64,000 nucleotides of DNA from a virus. The stretch lies in IMG/VR virus record IMGVR_UViG_3300021182_000253, one strand, 5' to 3'. The notes beneath the pieces are model-generated. The model had not been told where the DNA came from. It was given only the letters and a program-made list of their open reading frames with translations, and did no database searches. Numbering within the stretch: the first letter of the stretch is position 1; every line of letters starts with the position of its first letter. A program made the translations under genes and the position numbers. Below are positions 19,018-51,187 of the stretch, piece after piece.

Positions 19018-20115
19018 CTACCAAGAAGCTTCAACCATTTGAATACTTAACTCGCTTATCTTCTTCATATTTGGAGTATTTGGGAGTGGTGATGATGCAT
19101 AAAGAGTATCAATCTCTTTAGTTTGTTTATCAAACCACTCCATTAACTCAAAGAATGTCCATGCACCATTACGAATAGACAGAAGCTCTTCTGCATCTGG
19201 CCTACGTACACGCATAATACCATCAGTCATTAATTCCTTGCAGCATCTAGAGAGGCGCACAAGGTGCATGGCATGCTTACAATCGAAACCAAACTTAGCC
19301 TCTAGCTCTGCGCGAGCTGGGTTTCTATTCTTCTCCCAATCATTGAAGTGCTGCCAATCCCGCAGGCGGTTAGTATACAGCCTTTCCTTATCTAGGAATT
19401 CAATAAAGTTAGTTGAGAAACCAAGACTGTTAGCTGCAGCCAACCAAATCTTATCATCCACCTCCTCCACGCTCCAATTGGTAATCTCAGTAATACGACG
19501 TAGGAATTCATCCTGTATTTCTTGACGTACAGATGGCGTTAGACTCTCCATCTCATGCCAATTCCACTCATCACAGCGCCTTTTGACAGCTGCATTGGCA
19601 GCCATAATCTGATCGGTTGGGATGACAGTCCTAGAAGGCAATCCAAATTCCTCCCGAGTAGGCTGATGAGTTATGGGGTTTAATAACCACCGCCGATGAG
19701 TAAGAATTCTCTTCATCTGAGCATTAGCATATCCTTGGAAGGTAAACTTAACTCTCTTAGATAGAAAAAACTTCCTGCTATCAAGTAGCATTTGTCCTAT
19801 TTTAGATACGTGGAAATGGTCCTGCTCATCAGTAAATATGATTTCAAGAGCATTTGGATTACATTCCGATGCCAACTTGAGGAACTTGCGCAATTCAAAT
19901 ATAACCAAATCAGGATCTTTAGAGGTGGCTTGTTCGAAGTTATTGGTCATTCCTAAGTAGTATTCCTTAGGAGCAATTGCAATACCACGAATATCCAAAT
20001 CACTAGCTGGAGTTGATGTGCCATAGCACTGACTCCCGTGCCGTGTAAGATAGATAGTTCTTTCCCTAAGCCAATCAAGATTACCTATATATGTAGACCA
20101 ATCAAAATCTAACAT
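19018..20115 (-). CDS. Pol-beta superfamily nucleotidyltransferase (phage type)
   Basis: HGSQCYGTSTPASDLDIRG; KHAMHLVRL. Confidence 0.88.
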   Translation of the reverse strand: MLDFDWSTYIGNLDWLRERTIYLTRHGSQCYGTSTPASDLDIRGIAIAPKEYYLGMTNNFEQATSKDPDLVIFELRKFLKLASECNPNALEIIFTDEQDHFHVSKIGQMLLDSRKFFLSKRVKFTFQGYANAQMKRILTHRRWLLNPITHQPTREEFGLPSRTVIPTDQIMAANAAVKRRCDEWNWHEMESLTPSVRQEIQDEFLRRITEITNWSVEEVDDKIWLAAANSLGFSTNFIEFLDKERLYTNRLRDWQHFNDWEKNRNPARAELEAKFGFDCKHAMHLVRLSRCCKELMTDGIMRVRRPDAEELLSIRNGAWTFFELMEWFDKQTKEIDTLYASSPLPNTPNMKKISELSIQMVEASW

Positions 20116-38190: not shown

Positions 38191-38697
38191 CTATGTGTTA
38201 CAAACTGATTGGCCGGATTTTAGCACTTCAATTAGTTCATCAAGCCCGGTACACAATTTCCTATCCGCTAGATAAAATGTATCGGTTATTTTTCTAGTTC
38301 TATCGAATTTAGATTCTTTTGACCACAAATTTGATGTTGATGACATTAGGCAGATCATACATCCAGTAGGTCTAGAGATGAATACATATGCTAATGGCTT
38401 TACTTTTTTCCCATCAAATCCAGATACCGTATCTACGAATAAGGTTTTGTAAGGAAAGGATAATGTATATGTAAATGCTTCGTTGCGGCTTTTCGTTTCG
38501 ATCGTATGTCCATTGACAATTAAGTCTTTGGAAGACATGTACGCGCCGGCATCTTTGATTGAATCCCGAATCGTAAGCTCGGGCATCTCAACTTTCAAAC
38601 CGTGCAACTCGAAGAATAGTTTCGGCAATTTTTGCCATTCGAAACCCTCTTTTAGTTGGGAGAAGAATAAGTCGTCATTATCAGACCAGTTTGTCAT
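38191..38697 (-). CDS. Hypothetical protein, possible PD-(D/E)xK nuclease fold
   Basis: KDLIV...IETKSR. Confidence 0.55.
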   Translation of the reverse strand: MTNWSDNDDLFFSQLKEGFEWQKLPKLFFELHGLKVEMPELTIRDSIKDAGAYMSSKDLIVNGHTIETKSRNEAFTYTLSFPYKTLFVDTVSGFDGKKVKPLAYVFISRPTGCMICLMSSTSNLWSKESKFDRTRKITDTFYLADRKLCTGLDELIEVLKSGQSVCNT

Positions 38698-38855
38698 TTA
38701 TAATTTTTGAACAAGATTGCGTGTAAGAACCTTATGCATTCTTGCGAGCACTAAGTATCTTAGTAAAACACACTCAATAGGTCATTTACAATCAAATGTA
38801 GTTCCTGCTTGTATTCGTTGCAATTTGGACCGGCAAATGTAGATAATAAAAGTTT

Positions 38856-38978
38856 CGCAGTCGAGGTGAAATGCTTGTTTTGTTGCAAATGCAGGAATTG
38901 AACCTACTATTTTTCTTTTCAAGAGAAATGCCTAACCATTTGGCATAATTGCGTGTATGCATCTCGGATTTGACTGCG
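38856..38978 (-). ncRNA. Element A: degenerate tRNA (core 38881-38953, anticodon loop CU-UGA-AA) nested in a closing stem module
   Basis: Minus strand CGCAGUCAAAUCCGAGAUGCAUACA-[tRNA fold, T-loop UUCAAUU, ends ACA]-AAACAAGCAUUUCACCUCGACUGCG. Confidence 0.75.
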
Positions 38979-38979
38979 T

Positions 38980-39087
38980 TGGTGGAGCTAGCCGGAATCG
39001 AACCGACTTATTCGTGTAAGCATTAAAGGATGCGTCATAAATGACGCGAGTGGTAACGCTAATTACTTGATTTTAACCTTTAGCCCC
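38980..39087 (-). ncRNA. Element C: tRNA-Ala/tmRNA-TLD-like RNA carrying the shared module
   Basis: GGGGCUA/UAGCUCC acceptor stem with G3:U70, encoded ACCA, T-arm GUCGG-UUCGAUU-CCGGC; no D-stem or anticodon arm; 108 nt. Confidence 0.8.
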
Positions 39088-39106
39088 AGAGTGTAATAAA
39101 AGTTTA

Positions 39107-39230
39107 CGCAGTCGAGGTGAAATGCTTGTTTTGGTACGTAATATAGGAATTGAACCTATTGATGTTTTCGTGATAGGAAAACGCTCAACCATTGAGCAAA
39201 TTGCGTGTAAGCATCTCGAATTTGACTGCG
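39107..39230 (-). tRNA. Element B: tRNA (core 39132-39206, anticodon AUC, encoded CCA) nested in the same closing module as element A
   Basis: Full cloverleaf ACGCAAU/AUUACGU, GCUC/GAGC, UUUUC-CUAUCAC-GAAAA, AUAGG-UUCAAUU-CCUAU, ACCA; flanks nearly identical to element A. Confidence 0.8.
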
Positions 39231-39234
39231 TTAG

Positions 39235-39363
39235 CGCGGGTGCGTGGAGTTGAACCACGGCGTGTAAGCTTTGCTTGATGTATCCTTCTGAGGGGACACG
39301 AGTAAAAAAGCTGAATGTATCTGATTAAATGTCAGGCGAAGCACCGAGCTTCTATACACCCGC
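39235..39363 (-). ncRNA. Element D: tRNA-like RNA with the shared module in the variable-arm position
   Basis: GCGGGUG/CACCCGC acceptor, GAAGC-UCGGU-GCUUC D-arm, CGUGG-UUCAACU-CCACG T-arm. Confidence 0.8.
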
Positions 39364-39384
39364 AAGAGTTTAAGCTATCGAGTA

Positions 39385-39451
39385 ATAGTGCTTTTTGGTT
39401 GTCCAGATACTCCGATCTGGACGTACGTTATTCCTAGCGTGTAAGCACTAT
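39385..39451 (-). ncRNA. Element F: mini module enclosing a hairpin that ends in ACCA
   Basis: AUAGUGCUUACACGC...GUCCAGAU-CGGAGU-AUCUGGAC-AACCA-AAAAGCACUAU. Confidence 0.6.
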
Positions 39452-39467
39452 ATGTTGATAACTTTAG

Positions 39468-39597
39468 TGGGGCTTTAGGGAGTTGAACCCAAGCGTGTAA
39501 GCTTCACAAAGATGCATCCTTTTACCGGGACGCGAGGGATAAAGCTGAGTTTTCCAACTTATGTAGTAGGTGCGGAACCGATCCGCTGTGAAGCCCC
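39468..39597 (-). ncRNA. Element E: tRNA-like RNA, paralogue of element D
   Basis: GGGGCUU/AAGCCCC acceptor, GCGGA-UCGGU-UCCGC D-arm, T-loop UUCAACU, same internal module. Confidence 0.8.
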
Positions 39598-39662: not shown

Positions 39663-39690
39663 ATTCTGTCTGAATCCCAGCCTCTGTCAA
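39663..39690 (-). promoter_or_regulatory. Candidate promoter for the RNA cluster
   Basis: TTGACA-N16-CAGAAT about 65 nt upstream of element E. Confidence 0.45.
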
Positions 39691-39754: not shown

Positions 39755-40270
39755 TCAACATAAAGTATTATCAGTGCAATTATTATCTAATGATGAGCAT
39801 GAAGTGAAATTTAACAATGCGCATTTGCCGTGCAATCTTTTAGATGCGTTATCATAAGCGAACGCAGCATCTATTTCGTTGTCAAAACTACCAAGATGGA
39901 TTTGCTGTCCTTCTGAGGTTATGTAAGCGAACCACTTTAAATCTCTTCTAAAAAAGCACACCCCTTTATATTTAGAGGATCCGGCCCACTTTCTTCTATT
40001 AATCTGATTTTCTGATCCTAGACATATTCTAAGATTATATCTTTGATTATTAGTTCCATTATGGTCTATGTGGTCAATATGCACTTTGGAATTTGTGATA
40101 CCAAAGATCACTCTGTGCATTCTTATAGTTTTCTTATTCTCTTTGCGTTGAGCATAATATACATCCCAGCGCTTATCATAATAAGCGTACCATTTATACT
40201 TATTTACCGATTCAAAATCATCGTCATCTACAAGCGCAACCTGTCCTTGTGTTAATTGAATTTCTTTCAT
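39755..40270 (-). CDS. HNH-AP2 homing endonuclease
   Basis: IDHIDHNGTNNQRYNLR; SSKYKGV...IHLGSF..EIDAAFAYD. Confidence 0.9.
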   Translation of the reverse strand: MKEIQLTQGQVALVDDDDFESVNKYKWYAYYDKRWDVYYAQRKENKKTIRMHRVIFGITNSKVHIDHIDHNGTNNQRYNLRICLGSENQINRRKWAGSSKYKGVCFFRRDLKWFAYITSEGQQIHLGSFDNEIDAAFAYDNASKRLHGKCALLNFTSCSSLDNNCTDNTLC

Positions 40271-43224: not shown

Positions 43225-43521
43225 TTACCCAGCGAGCCAACTGGAGAGAAGATGCATACCGAATGGAGTCTTCGGACGGAGAAAGATTCGGTTGTATGGA
43301 GTCTCTTCCGTAGATGCATATCGATCGACAATGAAGTCTGCGAAGTTTGCATTCGGATCTGCCGCGATGTTGGCAACTCCTCCTGTACGTACCGCCTCAG
43401 TTACCCAAGTGCGAACGTCAGTCTCTGTGGCATCGAAAGAAACGGGGTCGCGAAGATCTCCATTGTTTCCTGCCCAAGTAACGTTTACGATTGCTTCGTT
43501 AGCTGCAATTTGTGTATCCAT
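43225..43521 (-). CDS. Putative ubiquitin-like (beta-grasp) protein
   Basis: 98 aa with a beta-beta-alpha-beta-beta pattern ending RIFLRPKTPFG plus a 10-aa tail; strong AGGAGG RBS; adjacent to JAB. Confidence 0.55.
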   Translation of the reverse strand: MDTQIAANEAIVNVTWAGNNGDLRDPVSFDATETDVRTWVTEAVRTGGVANIAADPNANFADFIVDRYASTEETPYNRIFLRPKTPFGMHLLSSWLAG

Positions 43522-43553
43522 GTTATCCTCCTATGAGCGCAACCTTAGTTGCT

Positions 43554-43937
43554 TTAGTAATGAGAGAGTTCCCTTAACTTGTCCATCCAATCCCAATTAT
43601 TTGGGATTAGTTCAACTGTGACAATGTGTCTAGCATATGTTCCTTTATCATTATCAAAGAGACATAATACTTGTGAATCTGAGCTTAGAATGGGCCAGTT
43701 TAGGTGTTTCCCCAGTGCGGCCTCGATGGCCGCGAAAGTTGTTGTATCGGTGTATGATGGTCCGGGATAACCACTCCCTGGATGAGTATGAGCGAACCCG
43801 GTTACTTTATCACGATTTTCCCAAATTACATCCCAAAGATCGCGGCTATCTGGAAGTGCTCCGCCATTGCGATCGTGAGGCGTGTGCCAATGTATAACGG
43901 AATTATTTGGACCAAGCAATATTCCGGCTTCTTGCAT
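43554..43937 (-). CDS. JAB/MPN+ (JAMM) metallopeptidase
   Basis: E3...AHTHPGSGYPGPSYTD (HxH-x8-SxxD). Confidence 0.85.
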   Translation of the reverse strand: MQEAGILLGPNNSVIHWHTPHDRNGGALPDSRDLWDVIWENRDKVTGFAHTHPGSGYPGPSYTDTTTFAAIEAALGKHLNWPILSSDSQVLCLFDNDKGTYARHIVTVELIPNNWDWMDKLRELSHY

Positions 43938-43949
43938 GATTATTTTTTC

Positions 43950-44906
43950 CTAATCTACATGTCTGTAAACAACCAAGAGACGATCTCTTATAGCTTCTCT
44001 AATTACAGAAGGTAAGCTTTCAAGAGTGAAAAATGTGTCACCCTTTTCTCCGGTATGATGATCTGTAAGACAAATTCCAGAATCAATTATTCTTAGTGTT
44101 TTCTCATCACAAACACATTCAAATCTTCTTTGTTCTAGCCTGAATCTAACAACCATCTCGCCGCGTCTGGGTGCTCTTCGATGATCAAGATAATGAGCAC
44201 CACCTACTGCTAAAGCCGCTCTCGCAGCTTCACCGAAGTCAATCTGAGCAAGTTCTCGTCGCGTCTCGGCATTGCCAAGATTTGCGATTAGTGCTTGTCG
44301 TCTTTCTTCCCGAGCACGGCGCTCTTCCTCTTCGCGTCGAAGACGTTCAAGTTCTTGACGGCGGCGCTCGGCTTCAATTCTCTGCCACACTTCCATGCGG
44401 AAAGCCGCATCCAAAGCAGGCACTACACTTTTGATACCCCTACATTGATAGAAATCGGTAGGATTATCAAGAAAAATTTCCATTACTTCATCTTCTGGGC
44501 CAATAGGCATTTCCTGTTGCTTGAAAATTAGAGGGCCATCATCACAGGTACGCCCGGCAGAAATCCGCACAAATCGGTCAAGGCCATCTTCTAGCATAAA
44601 AACAGGCTCAGAATTGGCTGCAATCGTCTTTGGGTCAGGATCAACCCGAGCATCATCGAGTACCAAGCGGTCACCCACAAGGTACCCGGTAACTGTGTTG
44701 CTCAGGATATTGGGATTGGCCCCAACTGCCGAAATCTCGTAGCGTGTGGCTTTTCGCCCGGAAATAGTAAAGGAATACCAACCATGTTCGATTGGTAGTC
44801 TGTTCTCAATATTCCAGACTTGTCCGTTGAGGCAGAGAGATCTCCCGCCAGTCCAAGGCAAAGTAATGCTGTTGCCTTCAGTCTCTAGAAGATCTCTCCA
44901 TCCCAT
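43950..44906 (-). CDS. Hypothetical protein with a coiled coil and a putative E2-like C-terminal domain
   Basis: C-terminal IIDSGICLTD resembles the E2 G-x-ICL catalytic-Cys motif; operon context. Confidence 0.5.
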   Translation of the reverse strand: MGWRDLLETEGNSITLPWTGGRSLCLNGQVWNIENRLPIEHGWYSFTISGRKATRYEISAVGANPNILSNTVTGYLVGDRLVLDDARVDPDPKTIAANSEPVFMLEDGLDRFVRISAGRTCDDGPLIFKQQEMPIGPEDEVMEIFLDNPTDFYQCRGIKSVVPALDAAFRMEVWQRIEAERRRQELERLRREEEERRAREERRQALIANLGNAETRRELAQIDFGEAARAALAVGGAHYLDHRRAPRRGEMVVRFRLEQRRFECVCDEKTLRIIDSGICLTDHHTGEKGDTFFTLESLPSVIREAIRDRLLVVYRHVD

Positions 44907-44951
44907 TTGTTACCTACAGTCGAGGATTGTTATTCACTTAGATAAGATTGT

Positions 44952-45488
44952 ATGAAAGTAATTCCACTAACACAAGATCAAGTGGCGTTTGTTGATGATG
45001 ATATGTTTGAATATCTTAATCAGTGGAAATGGTACGCCGATAAGTGTGGAAACACTTATTATGCTTGTCGTAATGTATACAATTTTGGACCAGAAAGAAA
45101 ACATATAAGGATTAAAATGCACCATGCTGTATTTGGGCGTAACGTTCAAATAGACCATGCTGATGGAAACGGTTGCAACAATCAAAAAGAAAATCTAAGA
45201 GAGGCTTCTTCACTTGAGAACAGCAGAAATCGTAAAAAGAATACGGGCTGTTCTAGTAAATACAAGGGTGTTTATTGGAATAAATCACACCAAAAGTGGG
45301 AAGCCTCAATTAGGGTCGGTAAGCCTCTGCGGGATGGCCGTCACTGCAAAATGTATTTAGGTAATTTTGATAGTGAAATTGAAGCCGCAAAAGCTTATGA
45401 TCAACAAGCGATTAAGTTCGGTGAATTTGCCAAACTAAATTTCGCAATCAACTCGCCCACGCAGGTTTGTGTAGCAAATCAACCTTGA
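44952..45488 (+). mobile_element. HNH-AP2 homing endonuclease inserted antisense within the operon
   Basis: IDHADGNGCNNQKENLR; SSKYKGVYW...YLGNF..EIEAAKAYD. Confidence 0.88.
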
Positions 45489-46907
45489 TGATCTTATCCA
45501 CCAAGGTTTCTCGAACAAACGAGTATGCAGCTGCCGGAGCTTGTCGAACCGGAGTTGCCGCAATCAAGTTTCGAAGAGTACGCGGAGTTGCATAAACATC
45601 TTCAAATGTTCGATTGTCGATATTGAAGCAAGGAATATTAAGCTTTGCTGCCGTATCAACAACACAAGAACCACGGTCACCTGGCACTTTGATCAAACCA
45701 AAAGCCATTGGGCGAAGTCCGGAATTCCGAACATCATTCTCGAAGGTTGGGTGTTGACCTTCATCACCAACGAAGACAATGATTGAATCTTCGTCATCCT
45801 TTGGCTTGAATTTAGATATATGGCGTACACCACAGCCGTAATCTGTTCCACCGCTTGCACGGAAGCCCATGAAAGCATTGTCGATACCAGCCTTACTTGC
45901 AACTCGTAGAGGAACTTCACGAGCTTGTGTGTTGAATACACAAGCGTGAATATGATCAAGTGGAATTCCTTGAACGAATTTAGCCACATATTGTTTTGCC
46001 ATTTCTAAAGAAGCATTCATAGAACCAGAGATGTCTACGACGAAATAGATCCTGATTCCTTTAATTACTTCTTCAGCTGCTTTCTTGATGGCATTATCAG
46101 CACCATCTTGTAACTTCTCCTTGATTTCATTTGAAGTTACATTGCGTGCAATATTGGCTGAGCGCATATCTTCTGAATTCTTGATAGCGCGTTCCCAACG
46201 AGCCTTGATGTCATGAACATTAAGTAGTCCTAACTCTTCAAGAGTAGGAGTTCGAATGATCAAGTCCTTATCAGACATGAGATTCGCCTCAATGATTGAT
46301 GCCATGATTGCGCGGGTCAGACCAATATTCTTCGGCAACATGCCCTCAACTCGCTTGAGGCCAATGCGCTCGGATTGAATCCGCTCACAGATTTGCTCTT
46401 CGTTTAGGCCTTCCCAAGACTCTGCCTGAGTGACCGCAACTCCAATAGCCATCTCACGACGGCCATCTTCTGCTTGCTTCTGCTTCCAGCGCAGAAGCTC
46501 GAAGAACTTAGGAGATGTTGGCTTGTAGCCGACACGCTGTGCGAGGCTCATGACGGTGCTTCGGAAACCAGCCTTGATCAAACCCTCAAGCAACTTGGGG
46601 TTCTCTTCACGATACTGCAGCCACTTATCAACAGTCTTTGCCCAGCGCCCAATGAACGGCTTGCGATCGGAGCGAAGACTTGGCGATACATCCAAGCAGC
46701 AACTTCTGGGAAGATGCCAGCTTCACGATATTCACCCAAGACCGCGCCATTGGCGGTGACGATCTTCTTGTCTTCGCGTAGGATTCCGATTTGGGTCTTG
46801 GTGGTTTTCTTGCCAGTTTTCGCTAGCTTATAAACCAACTTCTGCCCGCCCACGATCTTGTGCGTAACAGGTTCCCATCGAACGCCAATTATGTATAAGG
46901 TGATCAC
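45448..46907 (-). pseudogene. vWA-domain protein split by a frameshift/deletion at about 46675
   Basis: Upstream ORF (46578-46907) ...AAWMYRQV joins out of frame to RSDRKPFIGRW... of the 415 aa ORF; C-terminal vWA MIDAS FVVDISGSM, GGTDY, VGDEG. Confidence 0.75.
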
Positions 46908-48587: not shown

Positions 48588-49580
48588 TTAGATGTGGCAG
48601 TCCACAACCGTTAGCCAATGATCATCCGGCACTTCGGCAATCAGGGCGGTGAATTGCTTATCCCAATCCGCCTCATCCATTTCGTTGGCGACGCAAGCAA
48701 AACAATGCATCTCTCCACGTTGTGACCATTTCCTATCGCGCAAGAAACCAAAGCATGAGAATGGAGATGGGGTATTAGCCCATACCAAAGGATCTCCGGC
48801 GGTTTCCGGCACACCAACCATATTAATAAAATGTCCCCAAATGTTGGTTTTGATAGCTATTGATACCGGATGTTCTGCTGGAAGCTTCTTAATGTAATCA
48901 TATAACCTTATTGTGTTTGGGTTGGAAGTTCTCTGAGCTTCCCATTCAGCTTCGACCTGTTTCCAATTCTCACTAGCTGCCTTGAAGATTGCTTTAATTT
49001 CTTCGTGAGTGCGATGTGTCTTACCAGATAGCTCATCTAGCGCTTCATTGATCAACTTATTCCGATTATCAGAAGTCTGTTTGATCATTCCATCCCAATC
49101 AACTTCATCTTTGCGTACGGAATCAAAACCCCTTTCGTCATACAAAGATCCCATGACACCAGGCCTGCCGCGCTCACATGGGTAATTATGGCCAAGCTTT
49201 GGTTGAAGCATCCCAGACCATCTGCCGCCAACAGCCCACCAGTCCCACTTCTTGTTTGGATTTGTTCGCTGGACAACCTTTATCACTTCATTATCTTTGT
49301 TGACAGTTATGTATCCATATTTGTTTAGGCCAACAAAATCTTGAACATCATTCTCTGGTACAATTGAATAACCATAATAGTCTTGTGAAAATGTTAGTAA
49401 AGACTTTTGACGAGGCTTTTCTTCATATTCGGAACGAAGTTCTTCTGTCCTATCGATGTCCTGAATAAACTCATCGTCTGATCCTGTACATTCGAATTCA
49501 TGAAACGGAGCTAGTTGATAACCAACATTTTCATCGTTTGCCTTCTCGGATGTTACGACCAATACGGTAAAATGACTCAT
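48588..49580 (-). CDS. Conserved phage hypothetical protein
   Basis: MSHFTVLV...NPNKKWDWWAVGGRWSG...WLTVVDCHI. Confidence 0.8.
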   Translation of the reverse strand: MSHFTVLVVTSEKANDENVGYQLAPFHEFECTGSDDEFIQDIDRTEELRSEYEEKPRQKSLLTFSQDYYGYSIVPENDVQDFVGLNKYGYITVNKDNEVIKVVQRTNPNKKWDWWAVGGRWSGMLQPKLGHNYPCERGRPGVMGSLYDERGFDSVRKDEVDWDGMIKQTSDNRNKLINEALDELSGKTHRTHEEIKAIFKAASENWKQVEAEWEAQRTSNPNTIRLYDYIKKLPAEHPVSIAIKTNIWGHFINMVGVPETAGDPLVWANTPSPFSCFGFLRDRKWSQRGEMHCFACVANEMDEADWDKQFTALIAEVPDDHWLTVVDCHI

Positions 49581-49885
49581 GGTATTATCTCACTTCTAGA
49601 ATTGTTGCCAAGATGATATGTCCAAAATGTCCACTCACCATTTGCTAATTTGGGACGATGTTCACATTTATGCTGGCCGCAGAGACCATCGCAAGGATCG
49701 CATCCGGCATCCACGCAGCATTCGTAATAATAGCATGTATCGCAAATCCATCGGCCATCTTCGCACTGTGTATGCTTTAGCTCATATTCGCCCAGAATTC
49801 TAGTTGGCGGATCATCGCCATGATAGGCGATGACATCTGAACAGCCGGTCTGACACATGTTGCAGGGGCAGAAGTCGCAGAACAC
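49577..49885 (-). CDS. Cys-rich hypothetical protein
   Basis: Very high cysteine content. Confidence 0.55.
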   Translation of the reverse strand: MFCDFCPCNMCQTGCSDVIAYHGDDPPTRILGEYELKHTQCEDGRWICDTCYYYECCVDAGCDPCDGLCGQHKCEHRPKLANGEWTFWTYHLGNNSRSEIIP

Positions 49886-49891
49886 TAAACC

Positions 49892-51187
49892 TCACTTACG
49901 TCCATGGTTTTCCTCACTGATACCCTTGACACATAGAACTTGCTTGAGAGTATGTACTATTGAAACTAAGTCTGCTTGTGCAGCCATGACATCTTCTATT
50001 GGCTTGTACGCTCCTGGTGTTTCATCAATTACATCAGATTCAATACGGCATTCTACGCCTTGAACTGCTGCTCGATGGTCCTTCAAACTGAAGGTGTTGC
50101 GCGCTTCGGTGCGGCTCATCTTTCGCCCAGCACCATGAGATGCTGAACAAAAGCTTTCTCTATTGCCAAGGCCGCTCACAATAAAGCTCTTGTCTCCCAT
50201 AGATCCTGGGATAATTCCAAGTTCGCCCTTACGAGCGCTGATGGCTCCTTTGCGAGTAACCCATACTTTCTTGCCAAAATGGAATTCATTTTGGACATAG
50301 TTGTGATGACAGTTGACCTGAAGATCAGTTGCCTCGAACTTTGGAATGCCTTTGCAGCCCTTCAAAGTCTTGAGTACAGTACGCATCATCAAGTCACGAT
50401 TCATAGCCGCAAATTGCTGAGCCCATTTAACTGACTCAATAAAGTCATCAAAATACAAACTATCCTCTGGTAAAAACGAAAGGTAGATATCTGGCAAGCT
50501 ATCATTAAAGAACCACTTGATAGCCTCGCGCTTTGCAAGGTCGATGAAGTAAGATCCAATACGATTACCAACACCACGGCTTCCCGAATGTAGCATTACC
50601 CATACGCTATCATCTTCATCCAAACAAAGTTCGATGAAATTATTTCCAGTTCCAAGGGTTCCTAATTGGTTCTCTGGTGGCTGACGCGTTTTCAGTCTTG
50701 CATGCTTGGCAACAATCTTCTGATAGCCTGGCTCTAATTCAGCCCAGGCAATTTCTACGATTGAAGGTACTTCCCCGCGCCATGAGCCAATGTCATGTAC
50801 GCCGCCATTATCAGATCGTCCATTTGGAACAGCTGCTTCAATTTCAGAACGGATTGCAGCCAAGTCTTTCGGCAAGTGAGATCTCTTTAATGTGGTTTGA
50901 ACACAGGCCATTCCACATCCTATGTCAACTCCAACAGCCGCTGGAATGATCGCAGTGGTCGTTGGGATAACAGAGCCGATAGTAGCCCCTTCGCCAACGT
51001 GCACGTCAGGCATTGCCGCTACATGGCGGAATATGAATGGCATATTGGCAACGTTGAAGAGTTGCTTCTGCGCGCCTTCTTCTACAGTAACCCCAACAGT
51101 CCAGGACTTGATTGGAAATTTAGCTCCAGTAATTAAGTTAATGTTATCATGACGATAAACATTCATGTTTGAGTAATCGTTTGCCAT
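49892..51187 (-). CDS. rtcB: RNA 3'-phosphate/5'-OH ligase RtcB
   Basis: MPDVH, VGVDIGCG, GTLGTGNNFIE, LHSGSRG, HHNY, SASHGAGR, DETPGAYK. Confidence 0.96.
   Translation of the reverse strand: MANDYSNMNVYRHDNINLITGAKFPIKSWTVGVTVEEGAQKQLFNVANMPFIFRHVAAMPDVHVGEGATIGSVIPTTTAIIPAAVGVDIGCGMACVQTTLKRSHLPKDLAAIRSEIEAAVPNGRSDNGGVHDIGSWRGEVPSIVEIAWAELEPGYQKIVAKHARLKTRQPPENQLGTLGTGNNFIELCLDEDDSVWVMLHSGSRGVGNRIGSYFIDLAKREAIKWFFNDSLPDIYLSFLPEDSLYFDDFIESVKWAQQFAAMNRDLMMRTVLKTLKGCKGIPKFEATDLQVNCHHNYVQNEFHFGKKVWVTRKGAISARKGELGIIPGSMGDKSFIVSGLGNRESFCSASHGAGRKMSRTEARNTFSLKDHRAAVQGVECRIESDVIDETPGAYKPIEDVMAAQADLVSIVHTLKQVLCVKGISEENHGRK

Follow-up and report, generated by a model that had tools for sequence, protein, structure and literature searches.

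The RNA gene array and its surroundings

The DNA analyzed here, a 64-kb stretch referred to below as the window, is apparently part of a very large soil phage, and almost every gene is on the minus strand. Among them are genes for a Cas3-like helicase, an NAD-dependent ligase, a topoisomerase, RtcB, a Thg1-like enzyme, and an RlaP nucleotidyltransferase. An array of RNA genes lies between a nucleoside hydrolase/HNH-AP2 gene pair on one side and a 168-aa ORF on the other. The array and its parts are as follows.

38715..39597, minus strand: RNA gene array, ORF-poor, about 0.9 kb
39663..39690, minus strand: sigma-70-like promoter TTGACA-16-CAGAAT, 10 of 12 matches, a consensus match only
39597-39468, minus strand: long unit A, array member
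39451-39385, minus strand: mini unit, array member
39363-39235, minus strand: long unit C, array member
39206-39135, minus strand: tRNA(AUC), called by ARAGORN
39087-38980, minus strand: 105-nt RNA with an encoded CCA, from sequence reading
38953-38883, minus strand: tRNA(UGA), called by ARAGORN
about 38850-38715, minus strand: eroded unit, array member

The promoter stands upstream of the whole RNA array and is the probable start of a polycistronic array precursor. A similar TTGACG...TAATAT was seen by eye at the same place in L001, a sister phage contig of 84.5 kb (IMG/VR 3300037225_000673) that was reached via a flanking protein. The order of the array differs among the window, L001, and L075, a contig reached by motif scan of metagenomes, and this difference points to frequent rearrangement. 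A BLASTN search in distant mode found no match to the 1.2-kb array among 50,697 phage records.

An HNH/AP2 homing-endonuclease-like ORF (39755-40270, minus strand) separates the nucleoside hydrolase gene from the promoter of the array. It is apparently a recent insertion, because the hydrolase gene of L001 runs straight into the promoter region. The 168-aa ORF (38191-38697, minus strand) sits directly downstream of the array and is conserved in L001 and in contig L161. It had no Pfam match, and a D...E-x-K motif reminiscent of PD-(D/E)xK nucleases was noticed in it by eye. A cassette of vWA, 318-aa, JAB, Ubl, and ThiF-E1 genes was found just upstream of the RNA array in at least eight contigs, at the sites below.

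Window 43225-46695
L001:1611-2183
L005:10925-11518
L063:9827-10408
L075:4642-5214
L126:6911-7483
L160:9113-9697
L161:8033-8605

The ThiF-type E1 of the cassette is missing from the window. ORF clustering over 22 loci returned this E1 as the sole conserved neighbor of the array across lineages and gave no obvious RNA-binding protein. Elsewhere, the Ubl-E1 pairs TtuB/TtuC and Urm1/Uba4 double as sulfur carriers for tRNA thiolation. The linkage between cassette and array might be functional, or it may be mere synteny inside one phage clade.

Architecture of the 105-nt RNA and its relatives

The 105-nt RNA is divided into the following parts.

39081..39087, minus strand: 5' strand of the acceptor stem, GGGGCUA, with G3 at 39085, identical to E. 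coli tRNA-Ala
39061..39080, minus strand: stemless D-region of 20 nt, unpaired in the minimum free energy (MFE) fold and in the alignments
39019..39060, minus strand: shared module, a 42-nt hairpin, from the fold, a compensatory change in helix P-b, and family covariation
39008..39018, minus strand: linker UACACGAAUAA, which with the preceding CU makes the family motif CUUACACG
38991..39007, minus strand: T-arm of 5 bp, GUCGG-UUCGAUU-CCGGC, from the fold and a U:G to A:U compensatory change in the orthologues
38984..38990, minus strand: 3' strand of the acceptor stem, UAGCUCC, with U70 at 38986
38980..38983, minus strand: discriminator A73 at 38983 and encoded CCA at 38982-38980

The MFE fold of the 105-nt RNA, at -30.6 kcal/mol (z = -3.2; 1 of 200 shuffles was equally stable), consisted of the acceptor stem, about 14-20 unpaired nucleotides, a single long hairpin interrupted by a 6x6 internal loop, and the T-arm, and the centroid fold had the same architecture. 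Within the module, the 7-bp helix P-a (AGCGUUA/UAAUGCU) and the 6-bp hairpin P-b with its UUUA loop (GCGUCA-UUUA-UGACGC) enclose the internal loop CCACUC / AUCCUU. The fold contained neither an anticodon arm nor a D-stem. By fold and covariation the interior is this single 42-nt hairpin, with no pseudoknot ring. The D-region begins with AAGGU, which is the only part of it conserved among the orthologues described below, and its GG is kept in the alignments. Three-frame translation revealed no conserved tag-like ORF in the three orthologues; the reading frames either stopped early or ran through the T-arm without a stop.

The 7-bp acceptor stem, A73, and CCA agree letter for letter with E. coli tRNA-Ala(UGC), G3:U70 included, and the AlaRS identity set is complete (G1:C72, G2:C71, G3:U70, G4:C69, and A73). 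This acceptor end also likens the RNA to AlaRS-chargeable minihelices. While tRNA-Ala has a D-stem and an anticodon arm, the 105-nt RNA has neither, so the canonical tRNA-Ala cloverleaf with D-stem and NGC-bearing anticodon arm is not formed, and the RNA was called neither by ARAGORN nor by the Rfam tRNA model. The initial annotation had described a 108-nt alanine-acceptor RNA at 38980-39087 whose GGGGCUA/UAGCUCC stem with G3:U70 and ACCA end carries the AlaRS identity set and whose interior is the shared module alone, free of a tag ORF and of pseudoknots. The sequence bears out this description, as 105 nt plus CCA on the minus strand, and the fold and three-frame translations agree with what it said of the interior.

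Two orthologues were obtained, L001:4261-4361 and L075:3813-3913. Scored with a covariance model made from the sequences of the window and L001, the window reached 134 bits, L001 119 bits, and L075 82 bits, and everything else in the 650 kb of fetched loci reached at most 38 bits. These next-best hits matched long units, or unrelated mini-tmRNAs, in part only, and the model search gave no further short alanine-type member in 89 loci. Scans of viral contigs returned the sister contig L001 only, and the metagenome scan returned L075 only, among the matches listed. The three orthologues share 75-88% identity, a shallow sample of conservation. In their structural alignment, 97.3% of pair cells were standard pairs, compared with 32-41% when the partners were slid. 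Compensatory double changes occurred at four pairs, compared with none in the slid controls: 4:69 (G:C to A:U), 7:66, one pair in P-b, and one in the T-stem. A shuffle control on this covariation gave 11 of 500, a count not readable as a probability. G3:U70 and A73 stay constant across the three sequences even as 4:69 and 7:66 covary, and the T-loop is also preserved. Only the window encodes the CCA; in both orthologues the stem is followed by A-CUG. On these comparisons, the 105-nt element is a genuine small-RNA gene.

The motif CUUACACG occurs seven times in the window, compared with 0.95 copies expected, and six of the seven copies lie inside the array. The sole copy outside (20042-20049, minus strand), in the 5' part of an RlaP-like ORF at 19018-20115, may be there by chance. 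Pattern scans for CUUACACG beside a T-loop showed that this architecture also occurs in L005, an unrelated phage contig of 388 kb, in other viral contigs, and in many metagenome contigs. The members of this family are listed below.

Window 39597-39468 and 39363-39235, minus strand: long units A and C
L001:3979-5208: units of the sister phage contig
L005, L051, L052, L063, L067, L077, L088, L111, L113, L126, L136, L160, and L161: units of further contigs

The family units are 130-146 nt long. Each starts with a 7-bp acceptor stem and a 5-bp D-like stem with a short GG loop, continues with an anticodon-like arm of 5 bp whose irregular loops of 7-9 nt often have no U33, and ends with the P-a / CUCG-loop / P-b module, CUUACACGC, and the T-arm. 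A small extra hairpin is often present between the anticodon-like stem and the module. In an RNAalifold analysis of 20 long units, 28 of 34 predicted pairs showed double changes with pairing kept. The discriminator is A, G, or U, often followed by an encoded partial CC tail. Like class II tRNAs, the long units have acceptor, D, anticodon(-like), and T arms together with a long extra arm, which lies between the anticodon-like arm and the T-arm. This extra arm is far longer than that of class II tRNAs (about 42 nt, two helices, and a conserved CUCG internal loop). Their anticodon-like loops are irregular, and the units fit no known isoacceptor type. No family in Rfam 15 matches the long units and we found no paper describing them; the family is apparently undescribed so far.

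Four other identities for CUUACACG were considered and dropped. As a promoter it was set aside because it sits inside covarying tRNA-like folds; a self-cleaving ribozyme core found no ribozyme family match in Rfam; a relative of the CRISPR repeat was dismissed by its absence from the CRISPR region of the window; and its flanks do not pair as the stem of an anticodon loop. The module also recurs around the two tRNAs of the array. Both have odd anticodons, and tRNA(UGA) has the acceptor mismatches C1-A72 and U6-U67. Leader/trailer pairs flank them on the minus strand (39230-39100 and 38980-38856), with CGCAGUC...GAGAUGC pairing to GCAUUUC...GACUGCG, so that leader and trailer bear the family module in circularly permuted order. 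The leader end UAC and the tRNA start ACG recreate the UACACG motif.

The 105-nt RNA has the family acceptor stem, module, CUUACACG, and T-arm. The D-like stem and the anticodon-like stem of the family are missing, with the 20 unpaired nucleotides in their place, and the extra arm is the only such arm that it keeps. Its covariance model matched long units specifically over the module and T-arm (model positions 27/28-97, 25-37 bits), which identifies the RNA as an arm-less member of the family. Since non-alanine paralogues carry a homologous interior module, descent from the phage tRNA-like family is indicated, and descent from tmRNA is not demonstrable. By sequence and predicted fold, the 105-nt RNA is an alanine-type, arm-less branch of a tRNA-like RNA family specific to phages.

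Alanine identity was traced across the family in 22 non-identical units with perfect 7-bp acceptor closure. A G:U pair in the acceptor stem was present only at 3:70, in 6 of these 22 units, and the only other wobble was a single U:G at 7:66. By chance, six G:U pairs would all share one position with a probability of about 6e-5. A73 is present in every one of the six G3:U70 units, compared with 12 of the 22 units overall (hypergeometric p = 0.012 for the association). The six units come from different contigs, and four of them, in L063, L077, L088, and L160, are long with an anticodon-like arm. G3:U70 and A73 are keys to AlaRS recognition, and AlaRS needs only the acceptor/T-arm half of its substrate (PMC3968760). 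With G:U confined to 3:70 and always joined to A73, alanine identity appears to be selected in the family. This comparative evidence suggests that a subclass of the family, the 105-nt RNA included, is charged with alanine.

Comparison with tmRNA and the DS6A RNA

A tmRNA reduced to its tRNA-like domain (TLD) has been listed before. Mycobacteriophage DS6A is recorded with a "TLD only" tmRNA (Hudson et al. 2014, PMC4131195; tmRNA Website tmID 11587), and a 2025 tmRNA database paper repeats this case and adds organellar forms without a CDS (PMC11915505). As PMC4131195 summarizes Mao et al. 2009, a molecule like that of DS6A, chargeable or not, strongly inhibits tmRNA, perhaps by SmpB titration. 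All known tmRNA partners except S1 bind the TLD, and the tmRNA helix H2 is said to mimic the long variable arm of class II tRNAs (PMC3968760). We located the DS6A RNA at JN698994 28478-28560, where it scored 43.2 bits with the Rfam tmRNA model RF00023, below the cut-off of 47. The same record carries an RtcB-like ligase at 49300-50502 (L163/L164), as the window carries RtcB at 49892-51187 (396 bits), a co-occurrence in two phages only.

The 105-nt RNA scored 24.9 bits with RF00023, compared with the gathering score of 47 (E = 7e-8 in a 1.2-kb search). The model aligned the acceptor strands and the T-arm only and skipped the interior, and the match was lost in a whole-window search at E<=1. The GG..UCGAC signature of tmRNA is absent from the D-region (39061..39080, minus strand); the model alignment deletes it. 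SsrA and the 105-nt RNA share the alanine set with its G3:U70/A73 acceptor, a T stem-loop with the UUCGAUU loop, a reduced stemless D-loop, and a helix at the position of H2, and the ACAC-type linker after that helix is also present in some real tmRNAs. SsrA differs in having an mRNA-like domain with resume codon, tag, and stop, as well as pseudoknots and the D-loop signature, none of which the 105-nt RNA has, and a one-piece tmRNA measures 230-400 nt, compared with 105 nt here. The initial annotation had called the unpaired D-region without an anticodon arm tmRNA-like. This held for the topology, but the canonical tmRNA D-loop signature is missing.

The DS6A RNA is closer in layout. Like the 105-nt RNA, it is phage-encoded, has G3:U70 and A73, a T-arm, and a stemless D-region, carries a single closed helix in place of H2, has no tag ORF and no pseudoknots, and scores below the cut-off. 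The 105-nt RNA thus shows the TLD-only layout of acceptor stem, D-loop, short closed H2, and T-arm with no CDS. Three differences separate the two RNAs. DS6A keeps the canonical D-loop GGUGGUCGAC, whereas the 105-nt RNA is without it; the DS6A RNA is 83 nt long, not 105 nt; and it is solitary, whereas the 105-nt RNA has an internal hairpin common to non-alanine paralogues in a tRNA-like array. Given the lower score (24.9 bits compared with 43.2), the missing signature, and the shared module, descent from tmRNA as in DS6A is not demonstrable for the 105-nt RNA, and the covariance model of the 105-nt RNA did not detect DS6A at E<=1.

The junction CUU-ACAC-G, formed by the H2a 3' strand, the linker, and the start of the T-stem, was observed in full-length tmRNAs of metagenome contigs L131, L146, and L162 and in tmRNAs of two Ca. 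Spechtbacterales (CPR) MAGs (L173 and L174). This 8-mer is identical to the family motif and to the variable-loop region of tRNA-Cys(GCA), and at least 36 metagenome matches were tRNA-Cys(GCA) variable loops; the junction motif is therefore not tmRNA-specific. Its use as a clue to the host was dropped, since a genome-wide pattern scan gave the tmRNA-type junction in the two Ca. Spechtbacterales MAGs only.

A scan for short GGGGCU...GCUCCA elements returned 36 viral contigs. Some of these elements were tRNA-Ala genes with a chance upstream match, and many were TLD-only elements of 95-125 nt with tmRNA-type D-loops. Short elements of 71-126 nt, which combine G3:U70 and A73 with a tmRNA-type D-loop and are too small for a tag ORF, were observed in the following contigs.

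L010, L011, L012, L015, L020, L021, L023, L024, L027, L028, L029, L031, L032, L034, L041, and L042: TLD-only mini-tmRNAs, viral contigs
L092, L093, and L110: TLD-only mini-tmRNAs of 71 nt, metagenome contigs

By these sequence features, TLD-only mini-tmRNAs are apparently far commoner than the single published case. The 105-nt RNA resembles a TLD-only tmRNA in outline, and its membership in tmRNA is not established. Because its D-region is without the canonical D-loop signature, on which SmpB binding depends, such binding cannot be inferred.

The 105-nt RNA could nevertheless be a true tmRNA homologue cut down to its TLD, as in DS6A, that binds SmpB and blocks or redirects trans-translation. 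This is the strong form of the idea in the initial annotation, which had suggested an Ala-charged decoy for SmpB and EF-Tu. Its topology of a TLD with an H2 stub, the alignment of both ends by the tmRNA model at E = 7e-8, the tmRNA-consensus T-loop UUCGAUU, the junction shared with bona fide tmRNAs and the two Ca. Spechtbacterales genomes, and the precedents of DS6A and of Mao et al. 2009, the latter as reported through PMC4131195, all favor this origin. We consider it rather unlikely. The score stays at 24.9 bits where the DS6A control reached 43.2, and the GG..UCGAC D-loop that DS6A and many phage mini-tmRNAs keep is absent from a D-region that is poorly conserved even among the three orthologues. 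Moreover, non-alanine paralogues within this array have a homologous interior module, the junction motif also occurs in ordinary tRNA-Cys, and a search for an SmpB gene found none in the 84.5-kb sister contig, which covers about 19% of a genome put at about 440 kb by CheckV.

Proposed role and alternatives

The best explanation in our view is a non-decoding, alanine-chargeable mimic of tRNA and tmRNA that acts as a competitor or decoy, and we give it about an even chance of being right. The RNA would be transcribed with its neighbors from the single upstream promoter, cut at G1 probably by RNase P, and then trimmed at its 3' end. In the window the gene itself supplies the CCA, whereas the sister phages would rely on the CCA enzyme. 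The predicted molecule presents a tRNA top half, in which the acceptor stem would stack on the T-arm and the GG of the D-region would dock on the T-loop, with the long hairpin projecting at the position of the tmRNA H2 helix or of a long variable arm. As the full AlaRS identity set is present, charging with alanine would most likely be carried out by host AlaRS, and EF-Tu binding would follow. Having no anticodon, tag ORF, or recognizable SmpB-type D-loop, the RNA cannot decode, and competition is the most likely mode of action. The targets of such a decoy would be proteins recognizing the upper half of tRNA-Ala or of tmRNA: AlaRS, EF-Tu, possibly SmpB and RNase R, or host defense enzymes directed at tRNAs. 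By analogy with the TLD-only tmRNA of DS6A, the leading specific version would be a dampening of host trans-translation. Several points weigh against a decoy. Conservation spans only three close orthologues, and the D-region is without the D-loop signature that a case for SmpB binding would require. AlaRS and EF-Tu are abundant, so simple titration may fail, and the long units with alanine identity keep their anticodon-like arm, so the main job of the family may differ, the short form being a derivative.

The RNA-repair genes of this phage, RtcB, the Thg1-like enzyme, and RlaP, are consistent with a conflict over tRNAs. The array as a whole could accordingly be a set of decoys or spare substrates in such a conflict, working alongside these enzymes, with many acceptor/T-arm top halves of different identities that soak up or survive host enzymes that cleave or modify the ends or loops of tRNAs. 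The array RNAs do vary in acceptor stem and discriminator and have non-canonical loops of 7-9 nt, often without U33. The window encodes RtcB (396 bits), the Thg1-like enzyme, and RlaP, and DS6A likewise encodes an RtcB-like ligase. This support is contextual and implicates no specific host nuclease or toxin, and the precise upkeep of G3:U70 and A73 would be left unexplained. A role in tRNA conflict is thus suggested as a serious alternative, although a doubtful one as the account of the 105-nt RNA.

An improbable alternative to the alanyl decoy is the independent re-invention of a tmRNA-like TLD inside a family with long extra arms, acting with a partner other than canonical SmpB. An alanine-type long unit would have lost its D-stem and anticodon arm, and the short form would enter ribosomes or act on the rescue or aminoacyl-transfer pathways, its partner being phage-encoded or of the host and recognized in some way other than that of canonical SmpB. 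If this were true, the family would show natural intermediates between a long-variable-arm tRNA and a tmRNA TLD.

Loss of the same two arms could also have left a decaying paralogue with no function of its own. The eroded unit and the mini unit in the same array, together with an array order that changes among the window, L001, and L075, would suit such decay. It is very improbable, as three phages keep the short form, 75-88% identical and with compensatory changes in three of its helices, its T-loop and G3:U70/A73 are preserved, and its fold is significantly stable.

The initial annotation had also proposed a search for a separate coding-piece RNA, and none was found: the all-Rfam scan of the 64-kb window returned no match to the alpha, beta, cyano, or permuted tmRNA families at E<=1, the 84.5-kb sister contig L001 had no RF00023 match, and what RF00023 matched in the 388-kb phage behind L005 proved to be ordinary tRNA-Ala genes. 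Split and permuted phage tmRNAs do exist, but it is hardly credible that the 105-nt RNA is the acceptor piece of one with its coding piece elsewhere, because a single self-closing unit contains both acceptor strands in the usual order, the H2-like helix ends in a hairpin of its own that leaves no strand free for a partner, and no second tmRNA piece is present in the window or the sister contig.

Herein, our analysis places an alanine-type RNA, read preferentially as a non-decoding decoy, in a phage family of tRNA-like RNAs. The precedent for a tag-less, anticodon-less, alanine-accepting phage RNA is one brief published case, that of DS6A, and to our knowledge there is no mechanistic study of such alanyl phage RNAs in a natural setting. 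The decoy suggested in the initial annotation is a reasonable idea, but with this precedent it is not a new concept. The new elements are the lineage of the RNA and the support that sequence comparison lends to alanine charging. A phage tRNA-like family, and not visibly tmRNA, can give rise to such an RNA. The alanine mark recurs in several lineages of this family and occupies the sole G:U position tolerated in its acceptor stems. Dozens of further short elements of the TLD-only kind turned up in viral contigs, so phages may commonly use alanyl-RNAs that do not decode, possibly to manipulate ribosome rescue, aminoacylation, or tRNA-directed immunity.
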